A stretch of DNA of 32,813 nucleotides from an uncultured Gammaproteobacteria bacterium (GTDB lineage: Bacteria > Patescibacteriota > Microgenomatia > UBA12405). The position numbers were made by a program, and so were the translations under genes. The first letter of the stretch is position 1; every line of letters begins with the position of its first letter. Below are positions 1,800 to 28,873 of this stretch, in pieces. The notes under the pieces are model-generated. The model ran no database searches, had not been told where the DNA came from, and was given only the letters and a program-made list of their open reading frames with translations. Where the stretch lies: positions 1 to 32,813 of the forward strand of contig CAYUUU010000002.1 in the NCBI GenBank assembly GCA_964448065.1, in the 5' to 3' direction.

Positions 1800-1811
1800 A
1801 GCTCTAATAAT

Positions 1812-2951: not shown

Positions 2952-2960
2952 ACTAAACAT

Positions 2961-3554: not shown

Positions 3555-3556
3555 AT

Positions 3557-4102
3557 ATGTTTAAAAAAATATTAATTTTTTTATTTTGTGCTTTTAATCT
3601 TTTAACTGTCGGTTATTTATTATTACCAACTCCAACTCTTCCAAACCTGGTTAACAGTGTTAAATCAGATGAAGTCGGGGACACCATTCAAATCAGTAAT
3701 GTTTCCGCTTATTACACCAACATGACCCGCAGTGAAGTTATCGATTTTTACAAAGCCTATTACAGTGGCCCACTTCGAATTATTTTAAATCACCCTCCAG
3801 AAAAAGCTAAAACTGTTATCAAAGACACCATCCAAAGTTATTATTTTGAAGAATTTGTTTTGCCATTTAAAGAATCTCTGTATATAAATGGTTTTGAATG
3901 GGAAAATGATGTTTTTACCAAAGCCGAAAAAAGAATTAAAAATAAGCTTATTTTCCAAGGCAAAGAATATAAAGCCAAGATTACTATTCGTACTTTTCCA
4001 GTTTCCATTCCAAAACGTTTAATTTCTTTTTTTACCACTGAATTTGTTATTTTGTTTGGCGTCTACAGCTATATCAAATTTCTAAAAACCAAGAAAAAAT
4101 GA
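3557..4102 (+). CDS. Hypothetical membrane protein (N- and C-terminal TM segments)
   Basis: 181 aa. Hydrophobic N-terminus ILIFLFCAFNLLTVGYLLL and C-terminus FVILFGVYSYIKF. It sits tightly in the operon, starting 2 nt after the previous stop and sharing an ATGA overlap with the next gene. I recognise no family motif. Confidence 0.55.
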   Translation: MFKKILIFLFCAFNLLTVGYLLLPTPTLPNLVNSVKSDEVGDTIQISNVSAYYTNMTRSEVIDFYKAYYSGPLRIILNHPPEKAKTVIKDTIQSYYFEEFVLPFKESLYINGFEWENDVFTKAEKRIKNKLIFQGKEYKAKITIRTFPVSIPKRLISFFTTEFVILFGVYSYIKFLKTKKK

Positions 4103-7677: not shown

Positions 7678-7679
7678 AC

Positions 7680-8600: not shown

Positions 8601-9712
8601 AAAAACATATTGTTATTGATGCTCGACTTTATGGGCCCAAACATACTGGTATTGGTCGTTATACTAAAAATCTTTTAAAAGCCTTAATTAATCTTCCTGA
8701 TTTTAAAAAATATAAATTTACCCTAATTGTTTATAAAAATCTTTTAGAAGATATCAAAAAAGATTTAGGTAACAATTTTAATTATGTAGCCACTAATATT
8801 CCTCATTATTCAATCAAAGAACAACTTTTTTTACCATTTATTTTATATCGTCTTAATCCAAATTTAGTCCATTTTACTCATTTTAATAAACCAGTTCTTT
8901 ATTTTAAAAAATCAGTTGTAACTATTCATGATTTGATTAAACATTTTTTTACCGGTAAAGACACCACTACTAAAAATCAATTTTTATATAAAATCAAACA
9001 TTTAGGTTATCTTTTTTTAATTAATAATATTGTTAAAAGAAATCAAATTATTGTTCCTAGTAATTTTTGGCGAAAATATTTAATTGAAAAATTTAAATTA
9101 GAACCCAATAAAGTAGTTACTACTCACGAAGCTGTTGATCCAACTTTTCTAAAAAATAATCAAAATAATGACATTCAAAAACCTCTAAATTACATTATTT
9201 ATACCGGTAATTTATACACTCATAAAAATATTAAAATTATCCTAGAAGCTCTAAAAAAATTACCCAATATTAATCTTAAAATTATTTGTGCCAGAAGTTT
9301 TTTTAGCGATAAATTAAAAACTCAAATTTCCCACATGGGCATTAAAAAACAAGTCGAATTTTTAGGTTATTTAAACGATCAACAATTTAAAGATATTTAT
9401 AAACAAGCTCTGGCTTTGGTTCATCCATCTTTAATGGAAGGTTTCAGTTTAACCGGTCTTGAAGCTATGGCTCTAAATTGTCCAGTTATTTCTTCTAATT
9501 CCAGTTGCTTACCAGAAATCTACGAAAAATCAGTTCTTTATTTTGACCCCAACGATTCTTCAGATTTAATTAAAAAAATAAATGAACTTAATGGTAATTT
9601 AGATCTTCGTCAAAAACTAATCAATTTAGGACAAAAACAAGTTCAAAAATATTCTTGGTCCAAAACCGCCAAGCAAACAATGGATGTTTACAAAAACATT
9701 CTTAATTATTAA
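8597..9712 (+). CDS. Glycosyltransferase family 4
   Basis: 371 aa. Motifs IDARLYGPKHTGIGRY...MEGFSLTGLEAMALNCPVISSNSSCLPEIY. It shares an ATGA overlap with the upstream gene. Confidence 0.9.
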   Translation: MKKHIVIDARLYGPKHTGIGRYTKNLLKALINLPDFKKYKFTLIVYKNLLEDIKKDLGNNFNYVATNIPHYSIKEQLFLPFILYRLNPNLVHFTHFNKPVLYFKKSVVTIHDLIKHFFTGKDTTTKNQFLYKIKHLGYLFLINNIVKRNQIIVPSNFWRKYLIEKFKLEPNKVVTTHEAVDPTFLKNNQNNDIQKPLNYIIYTGNLYTHKNIKIILEALKKLPNINLKIICARSFFSDKLKTQISHMGIKKQVEFLGYLNDQQFKDIYKQALALVHPSLMEGFSLTGLEAMALNCPVISSNSSCLPEIYEKSVLYFDPNDSSDLIKKINELNGNLDLRQKLINLGQKQVQKYSWSKTAKQTMDVYKNILNY

Positions 9713-9726
9713 TTTTTAATTATTAA

Positions 9727-10812
9727 TTGAAACCAAAAATTGCTCTCTTTTATGATTGGCTTAACCAATGGGGTGGAGCCGAAAAAGTTTTATTAGATTT
9801 AATTAAAACTTTTCCCAATGCGCCTGTCTATACTCTAATTTACAACCCTAAAACAACCAAATGGTTGCCAAAAAAAATTAAAATCAACTCATCTTTTTTA
9901 AATAAAATTTCCATATTTAAAAAAAATTCCATTTTTCAAACTCCATTTTATTATTTAGCTCTAAAGCATTTTGATTTTTCTAAATACGATATTGTTATTT
10001 CTACAACTCAAGTTATCGGACACAGTTTAAACGTTCCCAAAAAAACTATTTTTATCTGTTATTTTCACAATATCAATCGTTATGTTTATCAAACTCCATC
10101 TCATTTTAATTTTTTAAAACCATTACTAAATATTTATAAAAAAATCGACTTTAAATTTGGTCAAAAACCAAATTATATTTTTTGCAATTCTAAAACTGTC
10201 CAACAACGAATTGAAAAAAATTACCATCGAAAAGCTAAGGTTATTAATCCTGGTATTGACACTTCCTTTTTTATTCCATCCGCTATTAAAACTACTAATG
10301 ATTATTTTTTAATTGTGTCTCGTCTGGTTACTCATAAAAAAATCGATATTGCCATTAATGCTTGTCATCAACTTCATAAAAAACTTTATATCGTTGGAAA
10401 TGGTCGAGATTATTCTCGTCTTAATAAAATAATTTCTAAACTAAACGATCCTAATATTAAATTGTTAGGATTTGTTGATGATCAAAAATTATTAACTTTT
10501 TATCAAAATTGCCAAGCTTTAATTTGTCCCCAAATAGAGGATTTTGGCCTGACCCCACTCGAAGCCCAAGCTTGTGGTAAACCAATTATTGCCCTAAGAA
10601 AAGGTGGTTTAACCGAAACTGTAATTAATAATAAAACTGGTATTTTTTTTAATCACCAAACAGTTAGATCATTAATCCATGCCATTAAAAAATTTGACCA
10701 TCATCGTTTTAACAAAAATATTTGTCGTCAAAATGCTCTTAAATTTTCTCGTCAAAAATTTATGTTAAACTTTAAAAACGAAGTTTATTCCCTATGGCAC
10801 AAACAACAATAA
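9727..10812 (+). CDS. Glycosyltransferase family 4 (TTG start)
   Basis: 361 aa. N-terminus KIALFYDWLNQWGGAEKV and motif EDFGLTPLEAQACGKPIIALRKGGLTETV. The codon at 9727 is TTG. Confidence 0.85.
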   Translation: MKPKIALFYDWLNQWGGAEKVLLDLIKTFPNAPVYTLIYNPKTTKWLPKKIKINSSFLNKISIFKKNSIFQTPFYYLALKHFDFSKYDIVISTTQVIGHSLNVPKKTIFICYFHNINRYVYQTPSHFNFLKPLLNIYKKIDFKFGQKPNYIFCNSKTVQQRIEKNYHRKAKVINPGIDTSFFIPSAIKTTNDYFLIVSRLVTHKKIDIAINACHQLHKKLYIVGNGRDYSRLNKIISKLNDPNIKLLGFVDDQKLLTFYQNCQALICPQIEDFGLTPLEAQACGKPIIALRKGGLTETVINNKTGIFFNHQTVRSLIHAIKKFDHHRFNKNICRQNALKFSRQKFMLNFKNEVYSLWHKQQ

Positions 10813-11888
10813 ATCATTATATTTTTGTCCTTTGTGGTGGTACTGGTCCCAGATTATGGCCACTTTCTCGCAAACAAAATCCTAAACAATTTTTGTCTTT
10901 TTTTGGCAAAGATTCATTATTAGAACAAACAATTCAAAGAGCTGGCAAGGTAGTCGATTCAAACAATATTTTTATTGTTAGCAACGATAATTATTTACAA
11001 AAAATAATTAAAATTGCTCAAAAATTTTCTATTAGTAAAAATATTATTACCGAACCAGAAAAGAAAAATACCGCTCTTGCCATCCTGTATGCCACCACTA
11101 AAATTAAGCAATTTGATCCAGAAGCAATTATTACGACTCTACCATCAGACCATTATATAAAAAATATTAATAAATTTAAAAACGACTTAATTAAAGCCAA
11201 AAATATTGCTTGTAATTATCAAAAAATAGTTACTATTGGTATTAAACCAACCAGTCCAAATCCAGCTTATGGTTATATAAAACCTAAAATTTTTGTTGAC
11301 AATTATTATTCAGTTGAATCTTTTGTCGAAAAACCACCAGTCGAAATTGCTTCAAAATTGATTGAAAATAATTCTTATTGGAATTCTGGAATTTATACTT
11401 TTTCCATAAATACTCTAATTAATGAATTCAAAGAATTGCAACCAGAATATTATTCAATATATAAAAAATTAGAACAAAATTTAAATCAACCCCAAAAAAT
11501 TAAAACTATTTACCAACAAGCTCCAGAACTAGCCATAGACCGAGCCATCTCAGAAAAATCAACTAAAATGGCTATGATTCCAGCTTCTTTTGATTGGAGT
11601 GATGTGGGTGAGTGGGGTGCTATTTTTAAAACTCTTTCAAAAGGTGACAATAAAAATATTTCCCTTAATTCTAAAACTCAATTTCTTAGTACTAATTCCA
11701 ATAATTGTCTTATTTCTGGAACCGACAAAAAATTAATTGGTTTAGTTGGTGTAAAAAATTTAGCTATTATTGATACCAATGATGCTCTTTTAGTTTGTGA
11801 TTTGGACTCTAGTTTTAATGTCCGTGATTTAGTAAGCTTGATAGTGAAACACAAAAAATATAAAATCTATTTTTTAGGCAAAAAATGA
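10794..11888 (+). CDS. manC: Mannose-1-phosphate guanylyltransferase (nucleotidyltransferase domain only)
   Basis: 364 aa. The N-terminal signature VLCGGTGPRLWPLSR and the later EKPxxE...YWNSGIY and DVGEWG motifs are typical of ManC/CpsB-type GDP-mannose pyrophosphorylases. Confidence 0.8.
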   Translation: MAQTTINHYIFVLCGGTGPRLWPLSRKQNPKQFLSFFGKDSLLEQTIQRAGKVVDSNNIFIVSNDNYLQKIIKIAQKFSISKNIITEPEKKNTALAILYATTKIKQFDPEAIITTLPSDHYIKNINKFKNDLIKAKNIACNYQKIVTIGIKPTSPNPAYGYIKPKIFVDNYYSVESFVEKPPVEIASKLIENNSYWNSGIYTFSINTLINEFKELQPEYYSIYKKLEQNLNQPQKIKTIYQQAPELAIDRAISEKSTKMAMIPASFDWSDVGEWGAIFKTLSKGDNKNISLNSKTQFLSTNSNNCLISGTDKKLIGLVGVKNLAIIDTNDALLVCDLDSSFNVRDLVSLIVKHKKYKIYFLGKK

Positions 11889-12523
11889 AAAAAATTACTT
11901 TTAAAATCTTCAAAAGAACCATCGATATAGTTGGTTCGTTAATTCTTTTAGTTATCTTTTCTCCTATTTTTTTGGTCACTATGATCCTTGTCAAGGTAAC
12001 TTCGCCAGGACCAATATTTTTTAAACAAAAAAGAGTCGGCAAAAACAGTAAACAATTTTGGATGTATAAATTTCGTTCCATGTATACCGGAGACAACGAT
12101 AAACGATTAAGAGATAATTATCCTGAATTGTGGAAAAAATATAAAGAATCTGGTTGGAAATTAGAAATGTCCGAAGATCCCCGAATTACTCCAATTGGTA
12201 AAAAAATTAGATCACTAACTATCGATGAATTTCCTCAATTAGTTAACGTTTTAAAAGGGGATATGAGTTTAGTTGGACCACGAGCCTATCGAGAAGAAGA
12301 GTTACAAGAATATGAAGCCAAATTTCCTCATACCAAACACCTTATAGACGATATTCGATCGGCCAAACCAGGAATTACTGGAGTATGGCAAACATCTGGC
12401 AGAAACGATATTTCTTTTGAACAAAGAGCTCAAATGGATTCCAATTATATTCGTCACCAATCATTCTTAAACGAAATTGTCATTATTTTTAAAACTCCAA
12501 TGTCGATGTTATCACGTTGGTAA
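11885..12523 (+). CDS. Small monotopic phosphoglycosyl transferase (Bac_transf family, PglC/WbaP C-terminal type), the initiating enzyme
   Basis: 212 aa. One N-terminal hydrophobic helix, then PGPIFFKQKRVGKN...FWMYKFRSM...DPRITPIGKKIRSLTIDEFPQLVNVLKGDMSLVGPRA. Confidence 0.9.
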   Translation: MKKITFKIFKRTIDIVGSLILLVIFSPIFLVTMILVKVTSPGPIFFKQKRVGKNSKQFWMYKFRSMYTGDNDKRLRDNYPELWKKYKESGWKLEMSEDPRITPIGKKIRSLTIDEFPQLVNVLKGDMSLVGPRAYREEELQEYEAKFPHTKHLIDDIRSAKPGITGVWQTSGRNDISFEQRAQMDSNYIRHQSFLNEIVIIFKTPMSMLSRW

Positions 12524-12552
12524 TTTAATTAATTTTAAGTTAAAATTGAAAC

Positions 12553-14511
12553 ATGGATCAATTAACCGCTCAAACAAACACTGTTAATCAAACCCCAACA
12601 GTCAAAAAATCTCTTAATTTAAAAAAAATTAAGTTTAATAAAAAGAAATTTCTTAAGGTTTTATCAATTATCTTAATAATTTTTTCTGTTCTTTTTGTTA
12701 TTTGTTTCTTTTCTGTTATTGTTCCTGGTACTAAATTAAAAAAACAAATAGAAACTCTTAAAAAAGAAGCTCCAATTATTCAACAAGCCATAACCGATAA
12801 AGATTTAGACAAAGTAAAATCTGAATTAAATGTAGTTAAATCTCAAATAAAATCTGTTGAATCAACTTACAAAAAATTTAGTTATGCCAAAATAATTCCT
12901 GTAGCTAAAAATTATTACAATGATGGAACTGAATTAATAAATATAAGTAAGGAAGCAATTGATGCTGGAAATATTGTTATTCAAGCCATAGAACCATATA
13001 AAGATTTCTTGGGAGTTAAAGGAGCCGCCACCAGCGGAGAAGAAACTACCCAGGATCGTATTTCCTTTTTAACTCAATCTGTTGAAAGTCTGGTCCCTTA
13101 TATGGATACTTTGGAACAAAAACTTTCTAAAATTGAAACTTCTTTAAACAAAATAGACCCCAATCGTTACCCTGAAGAATTCAAAGGTATTGCCATTAAA
13201 TCTGATTTAAATAAAGCCAATGAAATGGTTTCTCAAATTCATACTTTCCTTAAAAATGGTCAACCAATATTATCCAAAACTTCTTGGTTGTTAGGAAAAG
13301 ATTCTCCAAGAAACTATTTATTAATCTTTCAAAACAACGCTGAATTAAGACCTACTGGAGGTTTTTGGACAGCTTACGGATTAATCAAAATTGATAATGG
13401 TAAAATTACTCCTTTAGCTTCAAGTGACATTTACTCTCTTGATGCTCAAATTAAAAGTACGATTCCTGCTCCACGTCCAATTAAGGCTTATCATATTAAT
13501 GTTCCTTACTACAATGTTCGAGACATGAATATTTCTCCAGATTTTCCAACTAGTATAAAATTATTTTTGGAAAATTATGAAAAAGTTAATAAAAATACTA
13601 AAATCGACGCAGTTATTTCTCTCGATTTGGATGTTTTAGTTGATTTAGTTAAAGTTCTAGGTCAAGTTGGGGTTAGTGGTTTTGGTAATTTCTCTGCCGA
13701 ACCTGACACTCGTTGTGATGGTTGTCCTAATATTATTTATCAACTTGAAGAATTAGCTGATAAACCAAAAAGTTATATTGATACCAATCGTAAGGGATTT
13801 TTGGGACCTTTAATGAATTCTCTATTATCAAACGCTATGGGTTCAGAAAAAAGTAAAATGGGACCATTAATGGAAGCCTTCTTTACCAATATTAATCAAA
13901 AACATATTATGTTCTACTTTAAAGATACTGATATGCAAAAAGCTGGTGAATTAGCCAATATTGCTGGAACTATAACTCAAACAGACAATAGTATTGATTA
14001 TTTTCATTTAAATGACGCTAACATGGCTAGTGCTAAATCAAATCTTTTTATTACTCAAAAAATTAAACACGAAATTTCTACCAAAAATGGCAAAGTTACA
14101 CATAAAATTAGTATTACTTATACTAATCCAACCGCTGCTTCAAATTGTAATTTGGAAAAGGGTGGTCTGTGTCTAAATGCTGCTAATTATCGTGATTGGT
14201 TTAGATTTTTTGTTCCAACTGGATCAACTATGATAAAAATGACCGGATCTGAAGTTGAACCAGTCAAATATGAAGAATTAGGCAAACAAGTTTTTGAAGG
14301 ATTCTATGGTAACAAATATCCTCTTCAAGCTAAATCTAATTTAAAAACATCAATCGAATATGTCTCTTCTGTTCCTGCTAGTAAAAATTACAGCCTTTTA
14401 CTTCAAAAACAACCTGGAACCAAAGCTATCGATTATCAACTAATTGTTAATGGAAAAGAACAAGAAACATTTAGTTGGGTAGCCGATAAAACTATTCGAT
14501 TATCTCTTTAA
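12553..14511 (+). CDS. DUF4012 domain membrane-anchored protein
   Basis: 652 aa. N-terminal TM (VLSIILIIFSVLFVICFFSVIV), a coiled-coil-like region, then RNYLLIFQNNAELRPTGGFWTAYGLIKIDNGKI, the hallmark core of DUF4012 as I recall it. Confidence 0.75.
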   Translation: MDQLTAQTNTVNQTPTVKKSLNLKKIKFNKKKFLKVLSIILIIFSVLFVICFFSVIVPGTKLKKQIETLKKEAPIIQQAITDKDLDKVKSELNVVKSQIKSVESTYKKFSYAKIIPVAKNYYNDGTELINISKEAIDAGNIVIQAIEPYKDFLGVKGAATSGEETTQDRISFLTQSVESLVPYMDTLEQKLSKIETSLNKIDPNRYPEEFKGIAIKSDLNKANEMVSQIHTFLKNGQPILSKTSWLLGKDSPRNYLLIFQNNAELRPTGGFWTAYGLIKIDNGKITPLASSDIYSLDAQIKSTIPAPRPIKAYHINVPYYNVRDMNISPDFPTSIKLFLENYEKVNKNTKIDAVISLDLDVLVDLVKVLGQVGVSGFGNFSAEPDTRCDGCPNIIYQLEELADKPKSYIDTNRKGFLGPLMNSLLSNAMGSEKSKMGPLMEAFFTNINQKHIMFYFKDTDMQKAGELANIAGTITQTDNSIDYFHLNDANMASAKSNLFITQKIKHEISTKNGKVTHKISITYTNPTAASNCNLEKGGLCLNAANYRDWFRFFVPTGSTMIKMTGSEVEPVKYEELGKQVFEGFYGNKYPLQAKSNLKTSIEYVSSVPASKNYSLLLQKQPGTKAIDYQLIVNGKEQETFSWVADKTIRLSL

Positions 14512-15625: not shown

Positions 15626-16948
15626 ATGGCAGAAAAAAACCAAAACGAAATAGTTAGTAAAATAATCAGTCTTTGTAAAAGACGTGGAATAATTTTTCAA
15701 AATTCAGAAATCTATGGCGGCGTCCAAGGTTTTTACGATTATGGTCCCATTGGCTCTTTAATGAAATTAAATTGGAAAAATAAATGGTGGACAGACAATG
15801 TGGTTAAACGTCGTGATGTGGTTGGAATTGATGGTTCAATAATTACTCATCCACGAGTTTGGGAAGCCTCTGGTCACGTCAAAAACTTTGCCGATATTAT
15901 GGTCGAATGTAAAAAATGTCATAAAAGATTTAGGCCGGATCTTTTAGAAGATCCCTCTAAATGTCCAGAATGTGGTGGTGAATTTACTGAAGGTCGAAAA
16001 TATAATATTTTATTTGAAACCGAAATTGGAGTCATCGAAGGAGAAAAACAACACGCCTATCTAAGAGGGGAAGCTTGTCAAACCATTTATCTCGACTTTA
16101 AAAATATTGTTGATTCTAGTCGTGTCAAAATACCTTTTGGTATTGCTCAAATTGGAAAAGCTTTTCGAAACGAAATTACTCCAAAAAACTTTTTATATCG
16201 CACTCGAGAATTCGAACAATGGGATATTCAATATTTTGTCCACCCTTCAGAAATGGATAAATGGTATGAATATTGGAAAGCCAATCGAATGGCTTGGTAT
16301 CAGGATATTTTTAATAATCCTCAAAACTTAAGATTTCGAGAACACGAAAAAGATGAATTAGCTTTCTACGCTAAAAAAGCTTTTGATATTGAATTTAATG
16401 CTCCATGGGGATGGTCAGAAATGGAAGGAATTCATTGGCGAAGTGATTACGATTTAACCCAACATTCAAAATTTAGTGGTCAGGATTTATCTTATCTAGA
16501 CCCAGTTACTAACGAAAAATATTTACCCTATATTACTGAAACTTCCGGTGGTGTTGATCGAAGTTTCTTTTTTATGCTTTTAGATGCTTACCAAGAAGAA
16601 AAAACTACTTCTGGTGATATCAGAATTGTTCTAAAAGTTAAACCTCAAATTGCTGCTTATAAAATGGCCATTCTTCCATTAGCTGCTAATAAACCAGAAT
16701 TAATTGATAAAGCAGAATCTATTTACCAATCACTAATTACTAAATATTCAATTGATTGGGATGATAGCAGTAATATTGGTAAAAAATATCGTCGCCAAGA
16801 TGAAATTGGAACTCCATGGTGTCTAGTTGTCGATTATCAAACTCTAGAAGATAATACTGTCAGTATTCGTGATCGCGATACCATGGAACAAATCAGAATA
16901 AAATCTGATGAAGTTGACAGTTGGTTAGAAAAACAGTTAAATAAATAA
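15626..16948 (+). CDS. glyQS: Glycine--tRNA ligase, alpha2 (GlyQS) type
   Basis: 440 aa. Motifs FQNSEIYGGVQGFYDYGPIGSLMK, ...IAQIGKAFRNEITP...REFEQWDIQYF, ...SGGVDRSFF... and the anticodon-binding tail ...KKYRRQDEIGTPWCLVVD. Confidence 0.95.
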   Translation: MAEKNQNEIVSKIISLCKRRGIIFQNSEIYGGVQGFYDYGPIGSLMKLNWKNKWWTDNVVKRRDVVGIDGSIITHPRVWEASGHVKNFADIMVECKKCHKRFRPDLLEDPSKCPECGGEFTEGRKYNILFETEIGVIEGEKQHAYLRGEACQTIYLDFKNIVDSSRVKIPFGIAQIGKAFRNEITPKNFLYRTREFEQWDIQYFVHPSEMDKWYEYWKANRMAWYQDIFNNPQNLRFREHEKDELAFYAKKAFDIEFNAPWGWSEMEGIHWRSDYDLTQHSKFSGQDLSYLDPVTNEKYLPYITETSGGVDRSFFFMLLDAYQEEKTTSGDIRIVLKVKPQIAAYKMAILPLAANKPELIDKAESIYQSLITKYSIDWDDSSNIGKKYRRQDEIGTPWCLVVDYQTLEDNTVSIRDRDTMEQIRIKSDEVDSWLEKQLNK

Positions 16949-20458: not shown

Positions 20459-21781
20459 ATGTCTAAAAAATCTATTTCCTCTCTTAAACAAAGGATAAAA
20501 AATAAATTGTGGCACCGACCTAAAAACTTTTTAATTAGTTCTTACTTTAAATTTCCTTCAAAAAAATTAATTTTAATTGGAGTTACAGGAACTGATGGTA
20601 AAACTACCACCTGTCATTTAGTTCATCATGTTTTAACCAATGCTGGCATTAAAACAGGTCTAATTTCTACTACTGGTGCCAAAATTGGTATCAATGAATA
20701 TCCAACTGAACTTCACATGACATCTCCCGATCCAATTTTAATTCAAAAATTACTCAAAAAAATGGTTGATGAAGGAGTTACTCACGTAGTTTTGGAAGTT
20801 ACTGCTCATGCTTTAGATCAATATCGTTTTTTAGGTTGTCATTTTGAAGTTTCAGCTATCACCAATACTTCACATGAACATTTGGATTATTTCAAAAACA
20901 TGGAAAATTACATTAATATTAAAGCTAAATTATTTAAATATTCCAACAAAGTAATTCTTAATAAAGATGACCAATCTTTTAATCAAATTAAACAACAAAT
21001 TAATAAACCAGTTAAAAGTTACAGTATAAAAAACAAATCTGATTTCCAAGCTACCAAAATAAAATTATCTTCAAATTTACTCAGTTTTAAAGTTAATAAT
21101 CTTTCTTTTGTTACCGACAGTAATTATTATTATCAAACCTACAACATATTAGCTGCTTTAGCTATTATTGATAGCCTTAAAATTAGTCCAGAAATTTTAA
21201 TTGAAACTATTAAAAAATATCCTGAGACCAGTGGTCGTAGAGAAGAAATTTCTAACAGTTTTAAATTTAAAACCATTGTTGATTTTGCTCATACCCCAGC
21301 CGCCTTAGAAAATACTCTTTCTTCCCTCAAAAAAAACACTTCCGGTAACCTAATTGTTATTTTTGGAGCTACTGGTGGTCGAGATCAAAGTAAAAGACCA
21401 TTAATGGGAGAAGTTGTTTCTAATATCGCCAATATTGCTATTATTACTTCTGATGACACCAGAAACGAAAAAATAGATGATATTAATCAACAAATTATTA
21501 GCGGTATTAATTCCAAAAAGTCTGAGTTTGTTGATTTTCAGGTTATCGAAAACAATAGTCAAGTTCAAAAAATATTAGAATTAGCAAAAAATAAATTTGT
21601 TTATTTTAATATTCCTAACCGCCAAGACGCTTTTAATTTGGCTATTAAAATAGCTCAGACCAACGACACTGTTATCGCTTGCGGTAAAGGCCATGAAACC
21701 ACTATACTTAATGGTAAGACCGAATATCCCTGGTCTGAAGCAGAGGCTTTTAGATCTGCTTTCAGGTTTCGAAAACTTTAA
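20459..21781 (+). CDS. murE: MurE-type Mur ligase (UDP-MurNAc-L-Ala-D-Glu:diamino acid ligase) with a very short N-terminal domain
   Basis: 440 aa. P-loop GVTGTDGKTTT at aa 41-51. Motifs MTSPDPILIQ..., VVLEVTAHALDQYR, ITNTSHEHLDYF..Y..IKAKLF, GRREE...VDFAHTPAALE and FGATGGRDQSKRPLMG...ITSDDTRNE. Confidence 0.8.
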   Translation: MSKKSISSLKQRIKNKLWHRPKNFLISSYFKFPSKKLILIGVTGTDGKTTTCHLVHHVLTNAGIKTGLISTTGAKIGINEYPTELHMTSPDPILIQKLLKKMVDEGVTHVVLEVTAHALDQYRFLGCHFEVSAITNTSHEHLDYFKNMENYINIKAKLFKYSNKVILNKDDQSFNQIKQQINKPVKSYSIKNKSDFQATKIKLSSNLLSFKVNNLSFVTDSNYYYQTYNILAALAIIDSLKISPEILIETIKKYPETSGRREEISNSFKFKTIVDFAHTPAALENTLSSLKKNTSGNLIVIFGATGGRDQSKRPLMGEVVSNIANIAIITSDDTRNEKIDDINQQIISGINSKKSEFVDFQVIENNSQVQKILELAKNKFVYFNIPNRQDAFNLAIKIAQTNDTVIACGKGHETTILNGKTEYPWSEAEAFRSAFRFRKL

Positions 21782-21783
21782 TT

Positions 21784-22374
21784 ATGTCTCAATACAATAT
21801 TTCCAATCAAAACGATTTAGAAACCAACTATTCACTAGGCTATTTACCTCAAAGAAACAGTCCTCATCTTTTTTATTTTGACAGCAGTTGTCGATCAAAC
21901 TTAATCAACTTTAAACTTAGTTCTGAAAATCGCCGAATTTTGAATAAAACCGAAAATTTTAGTTTTACTAAAACAGAATCAAAAAAAATCAATTTTTCAT
22001 TAGAAATTCAAAAACAAATTTTTGGTTGGATTAAAAAACTGGAATGGGATTTTCCCATTAGTTCAGTTAAAAATATATTTACTAAACATATTTTTAATTA
22101 TATTTATGTTTGGAAAAACGAAAATAACGAAGTTGTTGCTTATGGTTTATGTCTTTTTACCCAAAGTATTAGTCATATTGCTTATGTTTTTTACAATCCA
22201 GAGTACAGTCATGGAAATTTACCTATTAGACTAGTTCTTCAAGTAATTATCGACAGTCAAGAATTGGGGCTAAAATACTGTTATCTCGGTCGTTTTTCCG
22301 AGTCGACTGGTTTTTATAAACGTAACATGCCCGGTTTTGAATATTTTAAAGATAATAATTGGATTACTTTATAG
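21784..22374 (+). CDS. Bpt/ATE-like (arginyl- or leucyl-tRNA--protein transferase family) aminoacyl-tRNA-dependent transferase
   Basis: 196 aa. The C-terminal half VVAYGLCLFTQSISHIAYVFYNPEYSHGNLPIRLVLQVIIDSQELGLKYCYLGRFSESTGFYKRNMPGFEYF..NNW follows the ATE_C/Bpt consensus as I recall it (..SAvYtFYdP.....slG....L..I..A...Gl.y.YLGY.I.....M.YK..F.P.E....W). N-terminal GYLPQR resembles the ATE_N CxYLPxR motif but lacks the Cys. Confidence 0.65.
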   Translation: MSQYNISNQNDLETNYSLGYLPQRNSPHLFYFDSSCRSNLINFKLSSENRRILNKTENFSFTKTESKKINFSLEIQKQIFGWIKKLEWDFPISSVKNIFTKHIFNYIYVWKNENNEVVAYGLCLFTQSISHIAYVFYNPEYSHGNLPIRLVLQVIIDSQELGLKYCYLGRFSESTGFYKRNMPGFEYFKDNNWITL

Positions 22375-22415: not shown

Positions 22416-22441
22416 TCCCCTCCTTTTTTCAAGGGAGGGGA
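22416..22441 (+). promoter_or_regulatory. GC-rich RNA hairpin in the bpt-like/mpl-like spacer (arms UCCCCUCCUUU / AAGGGAGGGGA, loop UUUC)
   Basis: Read directly: tcccctccttt-tttc-aagggagggga. It forms an 11-bp stem with one G-U pair. It is the only strongly GC-rich intergenic element in the window. No U-tract follows the stem directly, so it is not a textbook intrinsic terminator. Confidence 0.4.
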
Positions 22442-22467
22442 TTAAGGGGTGGATTTTGTTTTTAATT

Positions 22468-23841
22468 ATGCATATACATATCGTCGGTATTGCTGGAACA
22501 ATGACAGCCAATTTAGCTGTTAGTCTAAAAAAACAAGGCCACATAATTACCGGATCGGATCAAGAAAAAATCTACCCACCTATCAGTACTACTTTAAAAA
22601 AAGCCAAAATTATTATTAACGACACTCCAATTAGCCACGATATAGATTTAGCTATTATTGGTTCTTCTTATGATTCTTTTGAGAAAACTAAACAAGAATT
22701 TGAACAAATAAAAAGTCTAAAAATTCCTTTTATTTCGGCTACCGAATACGTTGCCCAAAATTTAATCAAACAAAATTCAATTTTAGTTGCTGGAAGTTTT
22801 GGTAAAACTACTATTACCAGTTTAGTTAGTTGGATATTTTTAAAAGCCAAAAAAAATCCAAACTACATGATTGGAGGTAATATTAAAAACAAACTCGATT
22901 CAGTTCATTTTTCCCCATCAGATTGGTCAATCACCGAAGCTGATGAGTCAATTCACGGTCTAGATACTATGGCTAAATTTTTATATTATCCAGCTAAATA
23001 TTTGGTTTTAACTAGCGCTACTTGGGAACACAAAGACAGTTATTCCAGCGAAATTGATAATTTCAATTCTTTCAAAGAACTAATTCTAAAAATTCCAAAA
23101 GATGGAGTAATTTTAATAAACAATAAAAATGAGACTGCTAAAAAATTAGCTCTTTTTGCTAATGCAAAAGTTATAACTTATAATTCTTCCGATTCAGATT
23201 ATTTTATTGAAAAAATCCAAATTAAAGAAAATTTAACTACCATTTTGATTCATACTCCAACTGGATTAATTAAAGTTGATACCAAACTTATTGGTCAATT
23301 TAATTTTGAAAATATTTTAGCTGCTGTGGCTATTAGTGATTATTTGGGAATTAAAAGTCATTTTATTCAAAAGGCTATTTTTTCTTTTAATGGAGTTAAA
23401 AGACGATTAGAACTAATTGGTAATCATAAAAATATTTTATTTTTTGATGATTTTGCTCAATCAGATGATCGCATAAAATCGGCCATAAATGCCATAAAAC
23501 TTCACTTTCCTAAACACAATATTAAAGTTTTGTATCAACCTCATGCCAGTTTTATTCAATACAAAGACAGTTTAAAAAATTTTTCTTCTGCTTTTAATCT
23601 AGCTTCCGAAATAGTAGTTAGTCAAATTAACTATAAAAAAGATATTTCCAAAGATCAACGAACCACAGTTAGAGATTTTCAAGATCAAATTGGAAACAAG
23701 TTTCACTATTTACCTATAGAAAAAGATATTATTAGTTATTATAAAAAAAGTTTAAAACCAAAAGATATTTTAATTAATATGAGTTCTGGTGGTAAATCAG
23801 GTAATCATATAATTAAAAATATAATTAAAATTTTTAAATAA
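22468..23841 (+). CDS. MurC/Mpl-family Mur ligase, Mpl-like (UDP-MurNAc:peptide or L-Ala ligase)
   Basis: The ATG at 22468 gives MHIHIVGIAGTMTANLAVSLKKQGHIITGSDQEKIYPPISTTL. This closely parallels the E. coli Mpl N-terminus as I recall it (MRIHILGICGTFMGGLA...GHEVTGSDANVYPPMSTLL). Other motifs are the P-loop AGSFGKTTITS, ITEADES, GVKRRLE and the C-terminal ILINMSSGG. The track's TTG at 22456 adds 4 unlikely residues. Confidence 0.8.
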   Translation: MHIHIVGIAGTMTANLAVSLKKQGHIITGSDQEKIYPPISTTLKKAKIIINDTPISHDIDLAIIGSSYDSFEKTKQEFEQIKSLKIPFISATEYVAQNLIKQNSILVAGSFGKTTITSLVSWIFLKAKKNPNYMIGGNIKNKLDSVHFSPSDWSITEADESIHGLDTMAKFLYYPAKYLVLTSATWEHKDSYSSEIDNFNSFKELILKIPKDGVILINNKNETAKKLALFANAKVITYNSSDSDYFIEKIQIKENLTTILIHTPTGLIKVDTKLIGQFNFENILAAVAISDYLGIKSHFIQKAIFSFNGVKRRLELIGNHKNILFFDDFAQSDDRIKSAINAIKLHFPKHNIKVLYQPHASFIQYKDSLKNFSSAFNLASEIVVSQINYKKDISKDQRTTVRDFQDQIGNKFHYLPIEKDIISYYKKSLKPKDILINMSSGGKSGNHIIKNIIKIFK

Positions 23842-25176: not shown

Positions 25177-26211
25177 ATGATTCATTTATATCTAGGTTTA
25201 CTTTTATTTTCCTTTTTGCTTACCAGCATTTTAGTTGTTCCTTTTATTAATCTTCTTTACAAATTAAAATTTCAACGTCAAAAACAAAAAACTATCGATT
25301 TTCAAAATAAAAGAACTCCTATTTTTGATAAATTTCACAACTCTAAATCTGGAACTCCAGTTGGAGGTGGATTGTTAATTATTGTTTCAGTCTGTGTTTT
25401 ATTTTTATTTTTAATTCCATTATTCAGAGCTGCAAAAATTTTTATTTCTTCAAATTACAGAATCGATTTAGAAATTAGAATTTTATTTTTTACTTTTATT
25501 AGTTTTGGATTATTAGGTTTATACGATGATGTTTATAAATTTTTTGGTTTCAAAAAAACAGGTTTTTTTGGATTAAAAATGATTCATAAACTTATTCTTC
25601 AATTGGTAATTTCTATAGTTATTTCTTTGATGATTTATTTCCAATTAGGAATTAATTTTATTTATTTGCCATTTTTGGGAGCTATCAATTTAGGATTATT
25701 ATTTATTCCTGTTTCCACGATTATTATTACTGGATTCGCTAATTTTTTTAACATTACCGATGGACTTGATGGTCTATCTTGCGGACTTTTAATGATTGCT
25801 TTATTTGCTTTTTGGATATTGGCCAGTACCTCAATGGATACCGTTATTTCAACCTTTTTAGCTCTTTGGTTAGGAGCTTTAATAGCTTTTCTGTATTTTA
25901 ATATCTTTCCAGCCAGAATTTGGCTAGGTGATGTTGGTTCACTTTCCTTTGGAGCCACATTTGCTGTTATTGCTATTTTGTTAGGTAAAGTTGTTCCTCT
26001 TATTACTGTTGGTTCACCATTTATTATTGAAGGTCTTAGCAGTGCTATTCAAATGATTAGTAAAAAATATTTTAAAAAGAAAATTTTTCCAGCTGCTCCA
26101 ATTCATTTAACTTTACAACAAATTGGTTGGGAAGAACCAAAAATTGTTTCTAGAGCCTGGTTGGCTGGTATTATTTTATCTATATTTGGTCTATGGTTAG
26201 GATTAAATTAA
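25177..26211 (+). CDS. mraY: Phospho-N-acetylmuramoyl-pentapeptide transferase MraY
   Basis: 344 aa polytopic protein. Motifs GTPVGGG, YDDVYKF, NFFNITDGLDGLS, WLGDVGSLSFGA and PIHLTLQQ.GW.E.KIV. Confidence 0.95.
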   Translation: MIHLYLGLLLFSFLLTSILVVPFINLLYKLKFQRQKQKTIDFQNKRTPIFDKFHNSKSGTPVGGGLLIIVSVCVLFLFLIPLFRAAKIFISSNYRIDLEIRILFFTFISFGLLGLYDDVYKFFGFKKTGFFGLKMIHKLILQLVISIVISLMIYFQLGINFIYLPFLGAINLGLLFIPVSTIIITGFANFFNITDGLDGLSCGLLMIALFAFWILASTSMDTVISTFLALWLGALIAFLYFNIFPARIWLGDVGSLSFGATFAVIAILLGKVVPLITVGSPFIIEGLSSAIQMISKKYFKKKIFPAAPIHLTLQQIGWEEPKIVSRAWLAGIILSIFGLWLGLN

Positions 26212-26759
26212 CAGAATTACAAGAAGAAATCAGTCATTATCTTGGTGTTCCTTATTGGAAAAATAAACTTGATAATGGCAAAATAATTAAAGAAGGTTTT
26301 GAAGGTGGTAAGGGCAATTGTCGACAAATTGCCACCGAAACTATTCGACTTGCTCAAAAACAAAAAATCGATTTGGTGAATTTAACCGAACAAGAATTTT
26401 ATAATTTTCAAAAAAGAAATCATATCGGAATAGACTGTTCCGGACTTGTTTGCCAATTGTTAATTTTTTATGGTCAACTAATTAATAAAAAAATTGAATT
26501 TAACATTCGTCGTACTTCCGCCAATATGTTAACTTCATCTCCTTTAGCCAAAGAAATAAAACTAAAAGATGTTCGAACAGGGGATCTAATTCGCCAAAAA
26601 AATGGCCATCATGTTTTATTTATTATCGACAAAGAAGGGGATGTTATAAATTATGTTGATAGTTCACTTAAAGGCCGAGGAGTTAAATTAGGACAATATA
26701 ATATCAAAGACAAAAATTTTGAAAATGAAGGATTTTTCCGTTTATTTTTCTTCGATTAA
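26193..26759 (+). CDS. NlpC/P60-family cysteine peptidase/amidase, no signal peptide (predicted cytoplasmic)
   Basis: 188 aa. Catalytic Cys motif GIDCSGLVCQLL and His region VRTGDLIRQKNGHHVLFIIDKEGDVINYVDSS (compare E. coli MepS as I recall it: GMDCSGFV...TGDLVLF....GHVGIY....FVHAS). The N-terminus is hydrophilic (MVRIKLTELQEEISHY). It overlaps the mraY stop by 19 nt. Confidence 0.75.
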   Translation: MVRIKLTELQEEISHYLGVPYWKNKLDNGKIIKEGFEGGKGNCRQIATETIRLAQKQKIDLVNLTEQEFYNFQKRNHIGIDCSGLVCQLLIFYGQLINKKIEFNIRRTSANMLTSSPLAKEIKLKDVRTGDLIRQKNGHHVLFIIDKEGDVINYVDSSLKGRGVKLGQYNIKDKNFENEGFFRLFFFD

Positions 26760-26900
26760 TTCTCTGTATTTAAGAGGGCTAAGAGAAATAATCTCTACTT
26801 CAGTTCCACATTCACTACATTCCAAAATATCACCAACCATTAAGTTTTCACTTAATTTAATTTCGCTTTTACAATCTGGACAAATAACTTTTTCATTCAT
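26742..26900 (-). CDS. LysW-like zinc-ribbon protein (putative amino-group carrier protein), absent from the supplied ORF track
   Basis: The reverse complement of 26742..26900 reads ATG...TAA over 52 codons: MNEKVICPDCKSEIKLSENLMVGDILECSECGTEVEIISLSPLKYRELIEEK. CPDC and CSEC are separated by 17 residues. The pattern CPxC..E(I/L).L......G(D/E)(I/L)..C..CG.E(V/L)E(I/V)....PL followed by an acidic tail matches LysW/ArgW carriers as I recall them. The canonical EDWGE end is replaced by ELIEEK. Confidence 0.6.
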   Translation of the reverse strand: MNEKVICPDCKSEIKLSENLMVGDILECSECGTEVEIISLSPLKYRELIEEK

Positions 26901-26925
26901 AATTCAATTAATTTTAATTAACTAG

Positions 26926-26931
26926 TATAAT
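26926..26931 (+). promoter_or_regulatory. Candidate -10 box (TATAAT) 11 nt upstream of the PLP-enzyme ATG, in the divergent 42-nt spacer
   Basis: The sequence actagTATAATttagatattatATG is read directly and shows no Shine-Dalgarno motif. This spacer must also carry the promoter of the minus-strand LysW-like gene if that gene is expressed. Confidence 0.25.
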
Positions 26932-26942
26932 TTAGATATTAT

Positions 26943-27764
26943 ATGCCAAAAACACCATTAGTTAAAATAGACAATTTTTATCTTAAACGAGAAGACTTAA
27001 ATTTAACCGGATCAGCCAAAGACCGAGCTATTATTTTTCAAGTAGAAAATTTAAAAAAACAAGGTTTTAACCAGGCTGTAATTTCCAGTACTGGCAATGC
27101 TGCTATTTCCGCTGCCTATTTTTGTCAAAAAAATAATATTAAATTAACTGTTTTTTTATCTCCTGATGTTAATTTACACAAATTGGAAATCATTAAAAAA
27201 TATTCTCCAGAAATTATTTTTTCCAAGACAGCAATTAGTGACGCTATTAAATTTTCCAAAAATAATCAGGCTTATTTACTTCGACAATCAACCGATAAAA
27301 CTGCTCTAATTGGTTATCAACAAATCGGTAAAGAAATATTGGACCAACTTCCCCAAGTTACCAGTATTTTTATTCCAGTTGGCAGTGGCACAACTTTGTT
27401 AGGAATCAGTCAATCATTACCATCAAATGTTAAAATTTTTGCCGCTCAACCAGCCGTTAACTGTCCTATTTCTAAATTTTTTGATTCAAAATTTATTCCA
27501 GAAACAAAAAATATTACTGACGCTATTACTGTTAAGGCCGTTCCTTTGAAAGATGAAATTATAAAAACTATTAAAACTAGCCAAGGAAATGCCTTTACTA
27601 TTCAAAATCAAGAAATTATCGAGGCTTCAAATAAATTAAAATCAAACAAAATTGAAACCTCTTTAGAAGGAGCACTTGCCCTAGCTGCTTTTTTAAAAGC
27701 CAAAAATCAAAAAACCGATTTTGGTAATTATCCAGTCATTATTCTTACCGGATGTCAAAGATAA
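26943..27764 (+). CDS. Fold-type II (tryptophan-synthase-beta/PALP superfamily) PLP-dependent enzyme, short form
   Basis: 273 aa. The PLP-lysine motif KREDLNLTGSAKDRA compares with NPTGSFKDR in threonine synthase and SVKDR in cysteine synthase. Other motifs are SSTGNAAISAA and the phosphate loop PVGSGTTLLG. Confidence 0.8.
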   Translation: MPKTPLVKIDNFYLKREDLNLTGSAKDRAIIFQVENLKKQGFNQAVISSTGNAAISAAYFCQKNNIKLTVFLSPDVNLHKLEIIKKYSPEIIFSKTAISDAIKFSKNNQAYLLRQSTDKTALIGYQQIGKEILDQLPQVTSIFIPVGSGTTLLGISQSLPSNVKIFAAQPAVNCPISKFFDSKFIPETKNITDAITVKAVPLKDEIIKTIKTSQGNAFTIQNQEIIEASNKLKSNKIETSLEGALALAAFLKAKNQKTDFGNYPVIILTGCQR

Positions 27765-28873
27765 ATTTAACCACTCTTTTAAATAAAAATTTTGTCTTCT
27801 TCTTTTTAGTTGTTGACAATTTTTTGGATATTGAAGTCCCTAAACTTACTAATTTTAAAAAGATTTATCTGTCTGATTATCCATCAATAAAATTAAAAAA
27901 CAGTGGAGCTCTTTTAGCCAATCCAAAAGTAATTCAATACATTAAAGATAATTCTGAATCAAAAATTCCAGTTATTGTTCCTTTCAAACCATCAGCTAAA
28001 ATCGATTTTTTGTGCAAAAAATACGGTTGGTTAAAAGCTAGCAATGATGGTCAAATAAACCGATTTTTAGAAGATAAAATAAAATTTGCTCTACTCTGTA
28101 AAAAATATAATTTGCCAACCATTCCTCAAACAATTGATAAATTTAATCAAAAAAATTTTTCTAAATATCAAAAATTATATGGATCAAAATTGATTATTCA
28201 AACTCATTTTGGTTGGGCTGGAAACAGTACTTATTTATCCTCATCATGGTCAGAAATCTCAAATAAAATTGCTCCAAATGTAATTGTTAAATATTCTCCA
28301 TTAATTGAAAAATCTTACTCTCTTTTAAACAATTGCTGTTTAACCAAATTTGGTCTAATTCAAAGTCCACCAGCTCTTCAATATACTGGATTAAAAGAAT
28401 TAACCAGTAATCCTTTTACCACTGTTGGTCGTCAATGGCCTTCTTGTGCTCCTGTGGAAATAACCAATCAGGTTAAAGAAATAACTCAAAATTTTTCCAA
28501 AATTCTAGAAGAAATTAATTACAAGGGATTTTTTGGTTTAGATTTTTTAGTTAAAGACAATCAAGTTTTTCTTTTGGAATGCAATCCTCGATTAACAGCT
28601 TCTTTTGGTTTTTATACCAACCTTGAATTAATTCAAAAAATTACCCCTCTTTTTTATTTTCATTTAATCGAATTTACTCAAACAGATTACAAAATAGATA
28701 TTGAATCAGAACAAAAAAGATTTTATCTAAATTTTGTTGGCTCTGAAATAACTGCTAAAAATAAACATCAACAAACTATAAAAAAAGTACAATTTTTAAA
28801 ACCGATTTTTGACAACACAAATCTAACCAATTCTTCAATAAATTTATCGAAACTTGCCCATGAAAAAACTTAA
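27752..28873 (+). CDS. ATP-grasp carboxylate-amine ligase, subfamily undetermined
   Basis: 373 aa. Motifs FLEDKIKFALLCKKYNLPTIPQT, KLIIQTHFGWAGNSTY and the Mg/ATP motif YKGFFGLDFLVKDNQVFLLECNPRLTASFG. It overlaps the PLP gene by 13 nt and ftsW by 14 nt. Confidence 0.8.
   Translation: MSKINLTTLLNKNFVFFFLVVDNFLDIEVPKLTNFKKIYLSDYPSIKLKNSGALLANPKVIQYIKDNSESKIPVIVPFKPSAKIDFLCKKYGWLKASNDGQINRFLEDKIKFALLCKKYNLPTIPQTIDKFNQKNFSKYQKLYGSKLIIQTHFGWAGNSTYLSSSWSEISNKIAPNVIVKYSPLIEKSYSLLNNCCLTKFGLIQSPPALQYTGLKELTSNPFTTVGRQWPSCAPVEITNQVKEITQNFSKILEEINYKGFFGLDFLVKDNQVFLLECNPRLTASFGFYTNLELIQKITPLFYFHLIEFTQTDYKIDIESEQKRFYLNFVGSEITAKNKHQQTIKKVQFLKPIFDNTNLTNSSINLSKLAHEKT

Follow-up and report, generated by a model that had tools for sequence, protein, structure and literature searches.

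In textbook schemes the stem peptide of peptidoglycan is built by ATP-dependent Mur ligases, and tRNA takes part only through the Fem family, in some Gram-positive bacteria. The classic donor in Fem reactions is Gly-tRNA. Aminoacyl-tRNA-dependent transferases of the GNAT fold are already known from wall synthesis (Fem, MurM); what is new here is an enzyme of the ATE/Bpt branch that occurs with a MurC/Mpl ligase. It is encoded on contig CAYUUU010000002.1 (GenBank assembly GCA_964448065.1), whose 32,813 nucleotides were analyzed as a whole and are referred to as the window. The protein, termed X, has 196 residues and is encoded at 21784..22374 on the forward strand, just upstream of a ligase of the MurC/Mpl type. 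The reading that we prefer, with a probability of about 45%, is that X is a dedicated enzyme of peptidoglycan-precursor synthesis that transfers amino acids from tRNA; it would act in a Fem-like manner with a small or hydrophobic donor and in complex with the ligase.

Bpt and ATE1 recognize the α-amine of an N-terminal Asp or Glu (PMC9351520). In Ate1 from Kluyveromyces lactis, a zinc finger is formed by four cysteines (Cys-23, Cys-26, Cys-95, and Cys-96), and the acidic substrate is bound in a pocket of Arg-80, Tyr-25, and Tyr-87. The side chain of the donor Arg is held by Ser-255, Ser-273, Glu-277, and Tyr-289, which are Ala, Ala, Gln, and Leu in Bpt. The active site contains the pair Tyr-303–Lys-304, Trp-260 binds tRNA, and the positively charged helix α3 binds the 3' end of the tRNA (PMC9351520). 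The 2010 survey by Aravind covers the superfamily in general terms only. In the literature searched, no description was found of an ATE_C-like or ATE/Bpt enzyme that is paired or fused with a MurC/Mpl ligase or encoded in the division and cell wall (dcw) cluster, in line with the statement in the initial annotation of this DNA that no wall function had been described for the Bpt-fold family.

The C-terminal half of X had been assigned to the ATE_C/Bpt pattern from the letters of the sequence, and this assignment proved sound on both Pfam statistics and fold. Pfam ATE_C (PF04377) matches residues 97–173 (22072..22302, forward strand), the GNAT core, with 26.7 bits against a gathering score of 25 (E = 9e-6). 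Among 86 diverse members of the family, 77 match ATE_C (best E = 3e-10), 35 match PF13480, 11 match Acetyltransf_1, and none matches ATE_N (PF04376). Seven NCBIfam arginyltransferase models match residues 35–196 at 15–29 bits, far below the equivalog level set by their cut-offs of 170–358; a homologue from Bacteroidota reaches 34–44 bits with NCBIfam arginyltransferase (PRK01305). An exhaustive hidden Markov model (HMM) search of 1.84 billion cluster representatives returned just 237 clusters of the X family at E ≤ 1e-3, so the family is small, discrete, and separate from the bulk of Bpt/ATE.

Sequence profiles (A1, A2) and a single protein (P0153) gave marginal matches to solved structures, and a fold search was needed. 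The best sequence match of the X-family profile in the PDB is a plain GNAT acetyltransferase (3d8p, E = 2e-4). The broad family profile matches ATE1 chains weakly (E ~0.13), with profile positions 133–204 aligned to ATE1 residues 234–307. An AlphaFold2 model of X was built on the family alignment, with a predicted local distance difference test (pLDDT) score of 92.4 and a predicted template modeling (pTM) score of 0.89. It shows a small N-terminal β domain followed by a GNAT core. When the model was compared with the PDB using Foldseek, a comparison that the initial annotation had proposed, the best matches were ATE1 structures from human, Saccharomyces cerevisiae, and K. lactis (8tzv_A, E = 1.7e-9, and more weakly 8e3s, 7tif, and 7wg1; TMq 0.64–0.75). 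Behind these came the domains of MprF/aminoacyl-phosphatidylglycerol synthases and then Weissella FemX (1xf8; TMq ~0.55), and all of the top matches are aminoacyl-tRNA-dependent GNAT transferases. These results place X in the ATE_C/Bpt/ATE1 aminoacyl-tRNA transferase superfamily. X does not qualify as a canonical Bpt, since it has no ATE_N domain and no zinc-finger cysteines and scores far too low with the equivalog models, which supports the earlier suggestion that it does not act as a canonical N-degron enzyme of the Bpt type.

Residues of X were mapped onto ATE1 partly through a yeast Ate1 sequence entered by hand, which gave a score (15.0 bits) and coordinates identical to those of the PDB match and whose numbering agrees with that published (PMC9351520). 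In this alignment Tyr-178–Lys-179 of X (22315..22320, forward strand) correspond to Tyr-303–Lys-304, Tyr-137 to Trp-260, and Gly-169 to Gly-292. The Tyr-Lys pair is invariant in 96 of 96 sequences, and also in A2. The same 96 sequences, drawn from three clades, show Tyr-16, Gly-19, Arg-37, Ser-47, Glu-48, Asn-49, Arg-50/Arg-51, Lys-55, Tyr-120, Tyr-167, Gly-169, Tyr-178, Lys-179, and Trp-193 to be invariant or nearly so. Residues Ser-47 to Lys-55 (SSENRRILN(K); 21922..21948, forward strand) form a helix in the model. Judging by the likeness of the motifs, this helix is the probable counterpart of the tRNA-binding helix α3 of ATE1, and it appears to resemble the basic helix that ends ATE_N. The positions equivalent to the Arg-binding pocket of ATE1 are occupied by Ile-132, Leu-150, Val-154, and Cys-166, none of which is acidic.

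There is no conserved pair of cysteines in the X family, which indicates that the zinc finger has been lost; position 36 is Cys, Ser, or Ala in the close clade and Val or Leu elsewhere. The segment GYLPQR near the N terminus had been read as a degenerate form of the CxYLPxR motif. The absence of the Cys ligands was confirmed. As to the motif itself, the NCBIfam alignments place residue 35 of X at positions 64–81 of the Bpt models, and residues 19–25 therefore more probably lie at GFRRSG, the acidic-pocket segment of ATE1, as judged from the ATE_N consensus.

In GNATs that use acetyl-CoA, the pyrophosphate is bound by a loop in motif A with the sequence Q/R-x-x-G-x-G/A. On direct reading this loop is absent from X, which has HGNLPIRL in the window and a family consensus of sLGiamm, resembling SLGK of ATE1. 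From the retained catalytic set, the donor pocket, and the missing acetyl-CoA loop, we consider it very probable that X is a catalytically active aminoacyl-tRNA transferase with a donor other than Arg. One residue separates the clades: Arg-24, in the motif G-x-L-P-x-R (21853..21855, forward strand), is Arg in 81 of 82 ligase-linked proteins from Patescibacteria and in 0 of 14 stand-alone proteins from Bacteroidota, which have Thr or Ser instead. This distribution makes Arg-24 a candidate determinant of a wall-specific acceptor.

The gene for X opens with an ATG 2 nt past the TAA of murE (20459..21781, forward strand), as had been reported, and the sequence strings quoted in that report are present in the protein. 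A search of 5.8 billion proteins identified 552 close homologues, mostly 62–83% identical and 196–210 residues long, and a broad profile extends the family to 1638 proteins. An alignment of 32 homologues from the close clade contains more than 70 invariant columns. Across 63 close-clade loci, X has a median identity of 62% to the protein of the window, compared with 60% for MurE, 54% for the ligase, 60% for FtsI, 60% for FtsW, 68% for MurA, and 78% for MraY. X is thus under strong purifying selection, comparable to that on essential wall enzymes.

A scan of one genome per GTDB species showed that at least 519 genomes encode a relative of X, and 79 loci were fetched. The ligase gene follows X directly in all of the loci with downstream DNA, down to 30% identity, except for a few with an intervening open reading frame (ORF), either a methyltransferase gene (L072, L074) or an ORF on the reverse strand (L079). 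Most of the pairs are spaced by −23 to +48 nt. Close relatives have the same gene order as the window, and relatives with 31–36% identity in X show the order ftsI-murE-(amidase)-X-ligase-murB-murA-ddl-murF-mraY-NlpC-PALP. In lineages at 30–35% identity, among them some labeled Saccharibacteria and Magasanikiibacteria, the order is (ATP-grasp)-(NlpC)-mraY-X-ligase-PALP and murE is not nearby; a Dojkabacteria genome has murE-X-ligase-PALP. In a Parcubacteria genome the order is reversed, with the ligase gene first and a 4-nt overlap, and the pair lies among unrelated genes. In the L090 lineage, the pair follows genes for a β-lactamase-family protein, Peptidase_M15, DUF218, and glycosyltransferases.

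In one lineage (P0122 type) X and the ligase are fused through a Pro/Ser linker into a protein of 630–654 residues that occupies the syntenic slot. Over 445 residues the fusion shares 39% identity with the window ligase (E = 5e-117). Seven variants of the fusion were found on at least nine contigs from ENA, JGI, and NCBI. Because the pair survives where murE is missing, where dcw genes are not around it, where its order is reversed, and where it is fused, the conserved unit is the X-ligase pair and not a gene in the dcw cluster. Of the placement first proposed, between murE and an Mpl-like ligase in a wall operon, it is the partnership with the ligase that is conserved, while murE or dcw as such is not. 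X is not scattered in relatives and keeps its cell-wall context across Patescibacteria; its genomic association marks it as dedicated to the making of peptidoglycan precursors. Ten ORFs tested in distant loci included no canonical FemAB gene next to X.

The 81–93-nt gap between X and the ligase gene in the window contains a G+C-rich hairpin, CCCCTCC-N-GGAGGGG, at 22417–22440. A terminator scan made no call between the two genes, and the spacing is not conserved, most relatives having a shorter gap or an overlap; a role as a terminator or attenuator was therefore rejected. X-like domains also occur in other fusions. A 440-residue ORF in L072 (7962–9284) joins one to an S-adenosylmethionine (SAM)-dependent methyltransferase, the two being separate genes in L074, between mraY and the ligase gene. 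A protein of 809 residues from a single contig (P0190) joins one to PPDK_N and the PEP-utilizers swivel domain.

The partner (22456..23841, forward strand) carries all three Mur ligase domains (N, M, and C) in Pfam. Its listed start is the TTG at 22456, but the ATG at 22468 (MHIHIVGIAG) is likelier, as it matches the N termini of homologues, that of Mpl, and the fusion junction. The ligase scores 237.6 bits with the murC model (TIGR01082; cut-off 335.1) and 177.5 bits with the mpl model (TIGR01081; cut-off 388.7), below both cut-offs. Against references fetched from Escherichia coli MG1655, the window ligase gives 149 bits with Mpl and 100 bits with MurC, and Mpl outscores MurC for 72 of 72 X-linked ligases. 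The best PDB sequence match is MurC (9ir5, 137 bits), followed by 3hn7 (120 bits), which we take to be an Mpl-type structure. The window ligase and 3hn7 share the motifs GSD..IYPP(I/M)ST, EADE..D..KF..Y.P, and MS(N/S)GG. At the amino-acid site the ligase reads QPHASFIQYK, where MurC has the L-Ala-site motif QPHR..RTR. The earlier label "Mpl-like" is defensible from the E. coli comparison but not decisive, given that the best PDB match is MurC, and we treat the partner as a distinct ligase of the MurC/Mpl family.

Taken together, we propose that X is a reduced ATE/Bpt-branch enzyme that may have been recruited in Patescibacteria from N-terminal tagging to the synthesis of peptidoglycan precursors in the cytoplasm. 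Its invariant basic helix (SSENRRIL.K) would bind the 3' end of an aminoacyl-tRNA, and Tyr-178–Lys-179, as in ATE1 and FemX, would transfer the amino acid to a free amine of a muramyl-peptide precursor. Instead of Arg, the donor would be a small or hydrophobic residue, possibly Gly or Ala. The amine that accepts it would most probably lie beside a carboxylate that is recognized by the clade-specific Arg-24; the likeliest candidate is the side-chain amine of the diamino acid at position 3 of the UDP-N-acetylmuramic acid (UDP-MurNAc)-peptide, so that a branch of the Fem kind would result. In this work X would form a complex with the MurC/Mpl-type ligase. We infer the tRNA dependence, the identities of donor and acceptor, and the complex. 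The more general claim, that X is a tRNA-dependent transferase in wall-precursor synthesis whatever its acceptor, we regard as likely. The initial annotation had allowed a carboxylate or an amine of the stem peptide as acceptor. As the donor is an aminoacyl-tRNA ester, only an amine fits the chemistry of the superfamily, and the carboxylate is chemically implausible.

Gly is a possible donor because the gene for glycyl-tRNA synthetase (GlyRS) is syntenic upstream and bulky hydrophobic side chains fill the donor pocket. This gene (15626..16948, forward strand; NF003211, 566.6 bits, cut-off 312) lies in a conserved order, recO-x-glyS-lipoprotein-rsmH...murE-X, even where X is only 31–34% identical. 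GlyRS as a donor supplier is possible on this circumstantial evidence. The enzyme in the window is probably the only GlyRS of the genome. Scans for tRNA genes and structured RNAs, in which a dedicated donor was sought, found no tRNA or Rfam element in the window.

A cultured relative without X offers a comparison. In the annotation and transposon sequencing tables of Southlakia epibionticum there is no PF04377 protein, and the neighbors of murC are unrelated genes (bioRxiv 10.1101/2023.05.02.539146). A FemA/FemB-family gene for "peptidoglycan bridge formation," on whose product PF13480 is recorded, overlaps the 3' end of murE, and the tables list MurT/GatD-like genes and no ClpS (bioRxiv 10.1101/2023.05.02.539146). 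The absence of a PF04377 protein from this organism indicates that X is lineage-specific, and the presence of FemAB beside murE, together with the lack of ClpS, makes a Fem-like role for X a reasonable analogy.

Several observations weigh against a Fem-like branching enzyme. The main weakness is that the universal partner of X is the first ligase of the pathway, and neither UDP-MurNAc nor UDP-MurNAc-L-Ala carries a free amine; MurE and MurF, the enzymes that create or precede the Fem acceptor, do not have this place. To our knowledge, Fem genes are not linked to murC. X is not a member of the Fem family, since the FemAB model of Pfam (PF02388) matches neither X nor any of the 86 family members, and it has a single GNAT core where Fem enzymes have two in tandem. 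The N terminus of X gives no significant sequence alignment with ATE1, so that Arg-80 and Tyr-87 of the acidic pocket are unmapped. Finally, homologues in Bacteroidota keep the catalytic motifs yet sit outside any wall context.

The last point also corrects the idea that the family is confined to wall operons. The wider family includes proteins from the cultured Bacteroidota Catalinimonas, Porifericola, and Roseihalotalea, annotated as "GNAT family N-acetyltransferase." In Bacteroidota (Cytophagales) the X-like gene stands alone after a DinB-family gene, with a 4-nt overlap (L080 7547–8762; L081, L085, L086, L087), near a small reverse-strand ORF, a SAM methyltransferase gene, and sugar-nucleotide genes. 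In one metagenome-assembled genome (MAG) of Saprospiraceae it is divergent from mreBCD-PBP2. No Mur ligase gene adjoins the X-like gene in the Bacteroidota loci examined.

The chief alternative places X in the building or salvage of the stem peptide. X would add L-Ala from Ala-tRNA to the α-amine of D-Glu or of a γ-D-Glu-peptide that is scavenged or freed in the cytoplasm, and the Mpl-like ligase would then attach the resulting peptide to UDP-MurNAc. The two enzymes would thus catalyze consecutive steps, which accounts for adjacency in both orders, translational coupling, and fusion and explains the pairing better than the Fem-like role does. As MurC-Ddl of Chlamydia shows, Mur enzymes that do not act consecutively can also be fused, and the X-ligase fusion therefore proves a shared pathway but not consecutive steps. 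Bpt and ATE1 take the α-amine of N-terminal Asp or Glu, and D-Glu is the second residue of the stem. The hydrophobic donor pocket of X fits this scheme, as do the Mpl-type motifs of the ligase, its 72 of 72 preference for Mpl, and QPHASFIQYK in place of the MurC motif. However, the best PDB match of the ligase is MurC, the murC model scores above the mpl model, and acceptors that are free amino acids or D-residues are not known for enzymes of this superfamily.

The surrounding genes bear on the same question. The usual mraY-murD-ftsW slot lacks murD in all X clusters, while murA, murB, murE, murF, and ddl can be present in the cluster, but a MurD-like gene adjoins the X-ligase pair in several distant lineages. 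In favor of the scheme, the cluster also encodes a cytoplasmic NlpC/P60-like peptidase and, in L065, an amidase. The MurE of X loci lacks the N-terminal UDP-binding domain 1: its alignment to E. coli MurE begins at about residue 97, and that of the window matches NCBIfam murE with 348–352 bits from model position 91. Relative to their E. coli counterparts, MurE (about 430 residues in 69 loci) and MurF (about 405; L065 13438–14649) both lack domain 1. In S. epibionticum, which has MurC and MurD, MurE (403 residues) and MurF also lack domain 1 (bioRxiv 10.1101/2023.05.02.539146). As this organism has no X, the truncation looks like a general patescibacterial trait, and the argument for peptide-first assembly that had been drawn from the truncated MurE and MurF was dropped. 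Within the C-terminal domain of the window MurE (21560–21600), the sequence reads SDDTRNE; the Arg is kept, but the motif is altered from DNPR, that of MurE enzymes of the meso-diaminopimelate type, and the residue at position 3 of the stem is therefore uncertain. On balance we consider stem building or salvage by X unlikely. Also quite unlikely is a more radical form, in which part of the core stem peptide, as opposed to a branch, would be made from aminoacyl-tRNA: X and the ligase would form a two-enzyme unit that places L-Ala or Gly from tRNA on D-Glu or a D-Glu-peptide before ligation to UDP-MurNAc, and this unit would serve as a tRNA-dependent bypass or salvage of the MurC and MurD steps in organisms unable to make D-Glu or diamino acids.

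It is improbable that X does not use tRNA at all, either as an acyl-CoA-dependent GNAT that N-acylates a wall precursor or as a non-catalytic subunit that regulates or scaffolds the ligase. The acetyltransferase 3d8p as best PDB sequence match of the profile (E = 2e-4), the 11 of 86 members that match Acetyltransf_1, and the NCBI name of the Bacteroidota proteins all point this way. Against it, the acetyl-CoA loop is absent from X, strict conservation falls on residues that belong to the ATE1/FemX catalytic site and to the basic helix, and the top structural matches are without exception aminoacyl-tRNA transferases.

A further alternative draws on an accessory module (26193..28873, mixed strands) that fills the mraY-[murD]-ftsW slot in all close relatives. 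It comprises genes for an NlpC/P60-like protein (26193–26759, forward strand), a LysW-type carrier (26742–26900, reverse strand), a PALP enzyme similar to threonine synthase or dehydratase (26943–27764, forward strand), and an ATP-grasp enzyme that is not Ddl and is PRK06524-like (27752–28873, forward strand). The module was assigned by synteny, Pfam, and NCBIfam, and its link to X is genomic only. The carrier, MNEKVICPDCKSEIKLSENLMVGDILECSECGTEVEIISLSPLKYRELIEEK, is a zinc ribbon of the amino-group-carrier kind; its ORF of 52 residues, which had no annotation, lies antisense between the NlpC-like and PALP genes. It matches PF21344 with 50.2 bits and lysW (TIGR01206) with 38.7 bits and ends in an invariant EEK, not the EDWGE of LysW. 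The module may direct carrier-protein-mediated synthesis of an unusual stem-peptide amino acid, or may be a cross-bridge module. X could act on a product of the module, for example an unusual diamino acid or a carrier-bound intermediate, which the ligase would then incorporate. The position of PALP directly after the X-ligase pair in distant lineages, the conservation of the LysW-type carrier in 47 of 80 X loci, and the occupation of the place of murD agree with such a role. The idea is purely contextual, however, and the pair occurs without the module in L083 and L090, while no LysW-like ORF was detected in the lineages farthest from the window; we regard it as very improbable.

Least probable of all is that X is an ordinary N-degron enzyme, a patescibacterial Bpt that transfers Leu or Arg to Asp/Glu N termini for ClpS/ClpAP and lies among wall genes by chance: the ATE_C homology, the ATE1-like fold, the name arginyl-tRNA--protein-N-Asp/Glu arginylyltransferase given by JGI pipelines, and the stand-alone Bacteroidota homologues, which could serve so, are outweighed by the absence of ATE_N and zinc-finger cysteines in all 86 members (0/86), by NCBIfam scores of 15–29 bits against cut-offs of 170–358, by a family of only 237 clusters apart from the Bpt/ATE bulk, by the fact that X is paired and fused with a Mur ligase in deeply separated lineages, which is not incidental, and by the lack of a listed ClpS in S. 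epibionticum, the one fully annotated cultured patescibacterium.

The window is AT-rich and coded on a single strand, and its proteins match Candidatus Shapirobacteria and other Patescibacteria. The cluster opens with rsmH, ftsL-like, ftsI, murE, X, the MurC/Mpl-type ligase gene, murA, and mraY; the NlpC/P60-like, PALP, and ATP-grasp genes follow, and then ftsW, murG, an unassigned ORF in the ftsQ position, and ftsA. Upstream of the dcw genes are a large glycosyltransferase cluster, recO, and the gene for a class II aminoacyl-tRNA synthetase. The region from 657 to 14511 holds a 12-kb polysaccharide cluster (GT4, GT2, hexapeptide transferase, Wzy-like, ManC-like, and Bac_transf) followed by the gene for a 652-residue DUF4012 protein; these lie directly upstream of recO-glyS-dcw, and the order DUF4012-recO-glyS is syntenic in relatives. 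In L090 a 511-residue MurA (2801–4336; EPSP_synthase domain) carries an N-terminal HTH_3/HTH_31 domain. Many MAG records with this typically patescibacterial cluster (L001, L002, L009–L012, and others) are titled "uncultured Gammaproteobacteria bacterium," which is probably a placeholder or mislabeled taxonomy.

The ultra-small Patescibacteria make up a large share of bacterial diversity, and their wall chemistry is essentially undescribed. An enzyme of the ATE/Bpt branch beside the first Mur ligase, with relatives of X in at least 519 species-representative genomes of this group, is of interest under either of two roles. If X adds branches, it would represent an independent recruitment of tRNA chemistry to the wall, and branched muropeptides would be predicted in these epibionts; if it feeds the ligase, the core stem-peptide pathway would change. 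Automated pipelines label X as "arginyltransferase/Bpt," "GNAT N-acetyltransferase," or "hypothetical," and as a result metabolic reconstructions may wrongly infer an N-degron pathway. X and the ligase are small, soluble proteins, which opens their role to direct study in vitro.

Compared with Bpt and ATE1, X has in common the ATE_C GNAT core, the Tyr-Lys pair, the C-terminal motif YLG...YK...E, and the basic helix, and the chemistry would be the same, with a substrate amine attacking an aminoacyl-tRNA ester. It differs in its length, 196 residues against about 240 for Bpt or 500 for ATE1, and in lacking an ATE_N match and a Cys4 zinc or iron-sulfur site; it has G-x-LPQRN and not GFRRSG. Its scores are an order of magnitude under the equivalog cut-offs, and its donor pocket has no acidic residue. 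The gene is tied to a Mur ligase, whereas Bpt and ATE1 genes stand alone or with clpS or aat.

FemX, FemXAB, and MurM (PF02388) belong to the same superfamily, and the reaction proposed for X resembles theirs, in which tRNA delivers Gly or an L-amino acid to an amine of the stem peptide. In Weissella, FemX is cytoplasmic and acts on UDP-MurNAc-pentapeptide. A wall-gene context is also shared, with FemAB beside murE in S. epibionticum and PF13480 matched by 35 of 86 members of the X family. Fem proteins, however, have two GNAT domains in 330–420 residues, often with a coiled coil, in contrast to the one GNAT domain and small N-terminal β domain of X; their structural match to X is weaker (TMq ~0.55), and pairing or fusion with murC is not known for Fem genes. 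The leucyl/phenylalanyl-transferase Aat and the MprF domains, the latter the second-best fold match, are likewise aminoacyl-tRNA-dependent GNAT transferases, but their acceptors are basic protein N termini and lipid head groups, respectively, they show no sequence-level match, and X has no membrane domain. The partner ligase shares with Mpl and MurC the three-domain architecture, the motifs GSD..(I/V)YPP(I/M)ST and EADE..D..KF..Y.P, and, in relatives, the murC position by murB and murA. It differs from them in scoring below both HMM cut-offs, in an amino-acid-site motif unlike either, and in always being paired with X.

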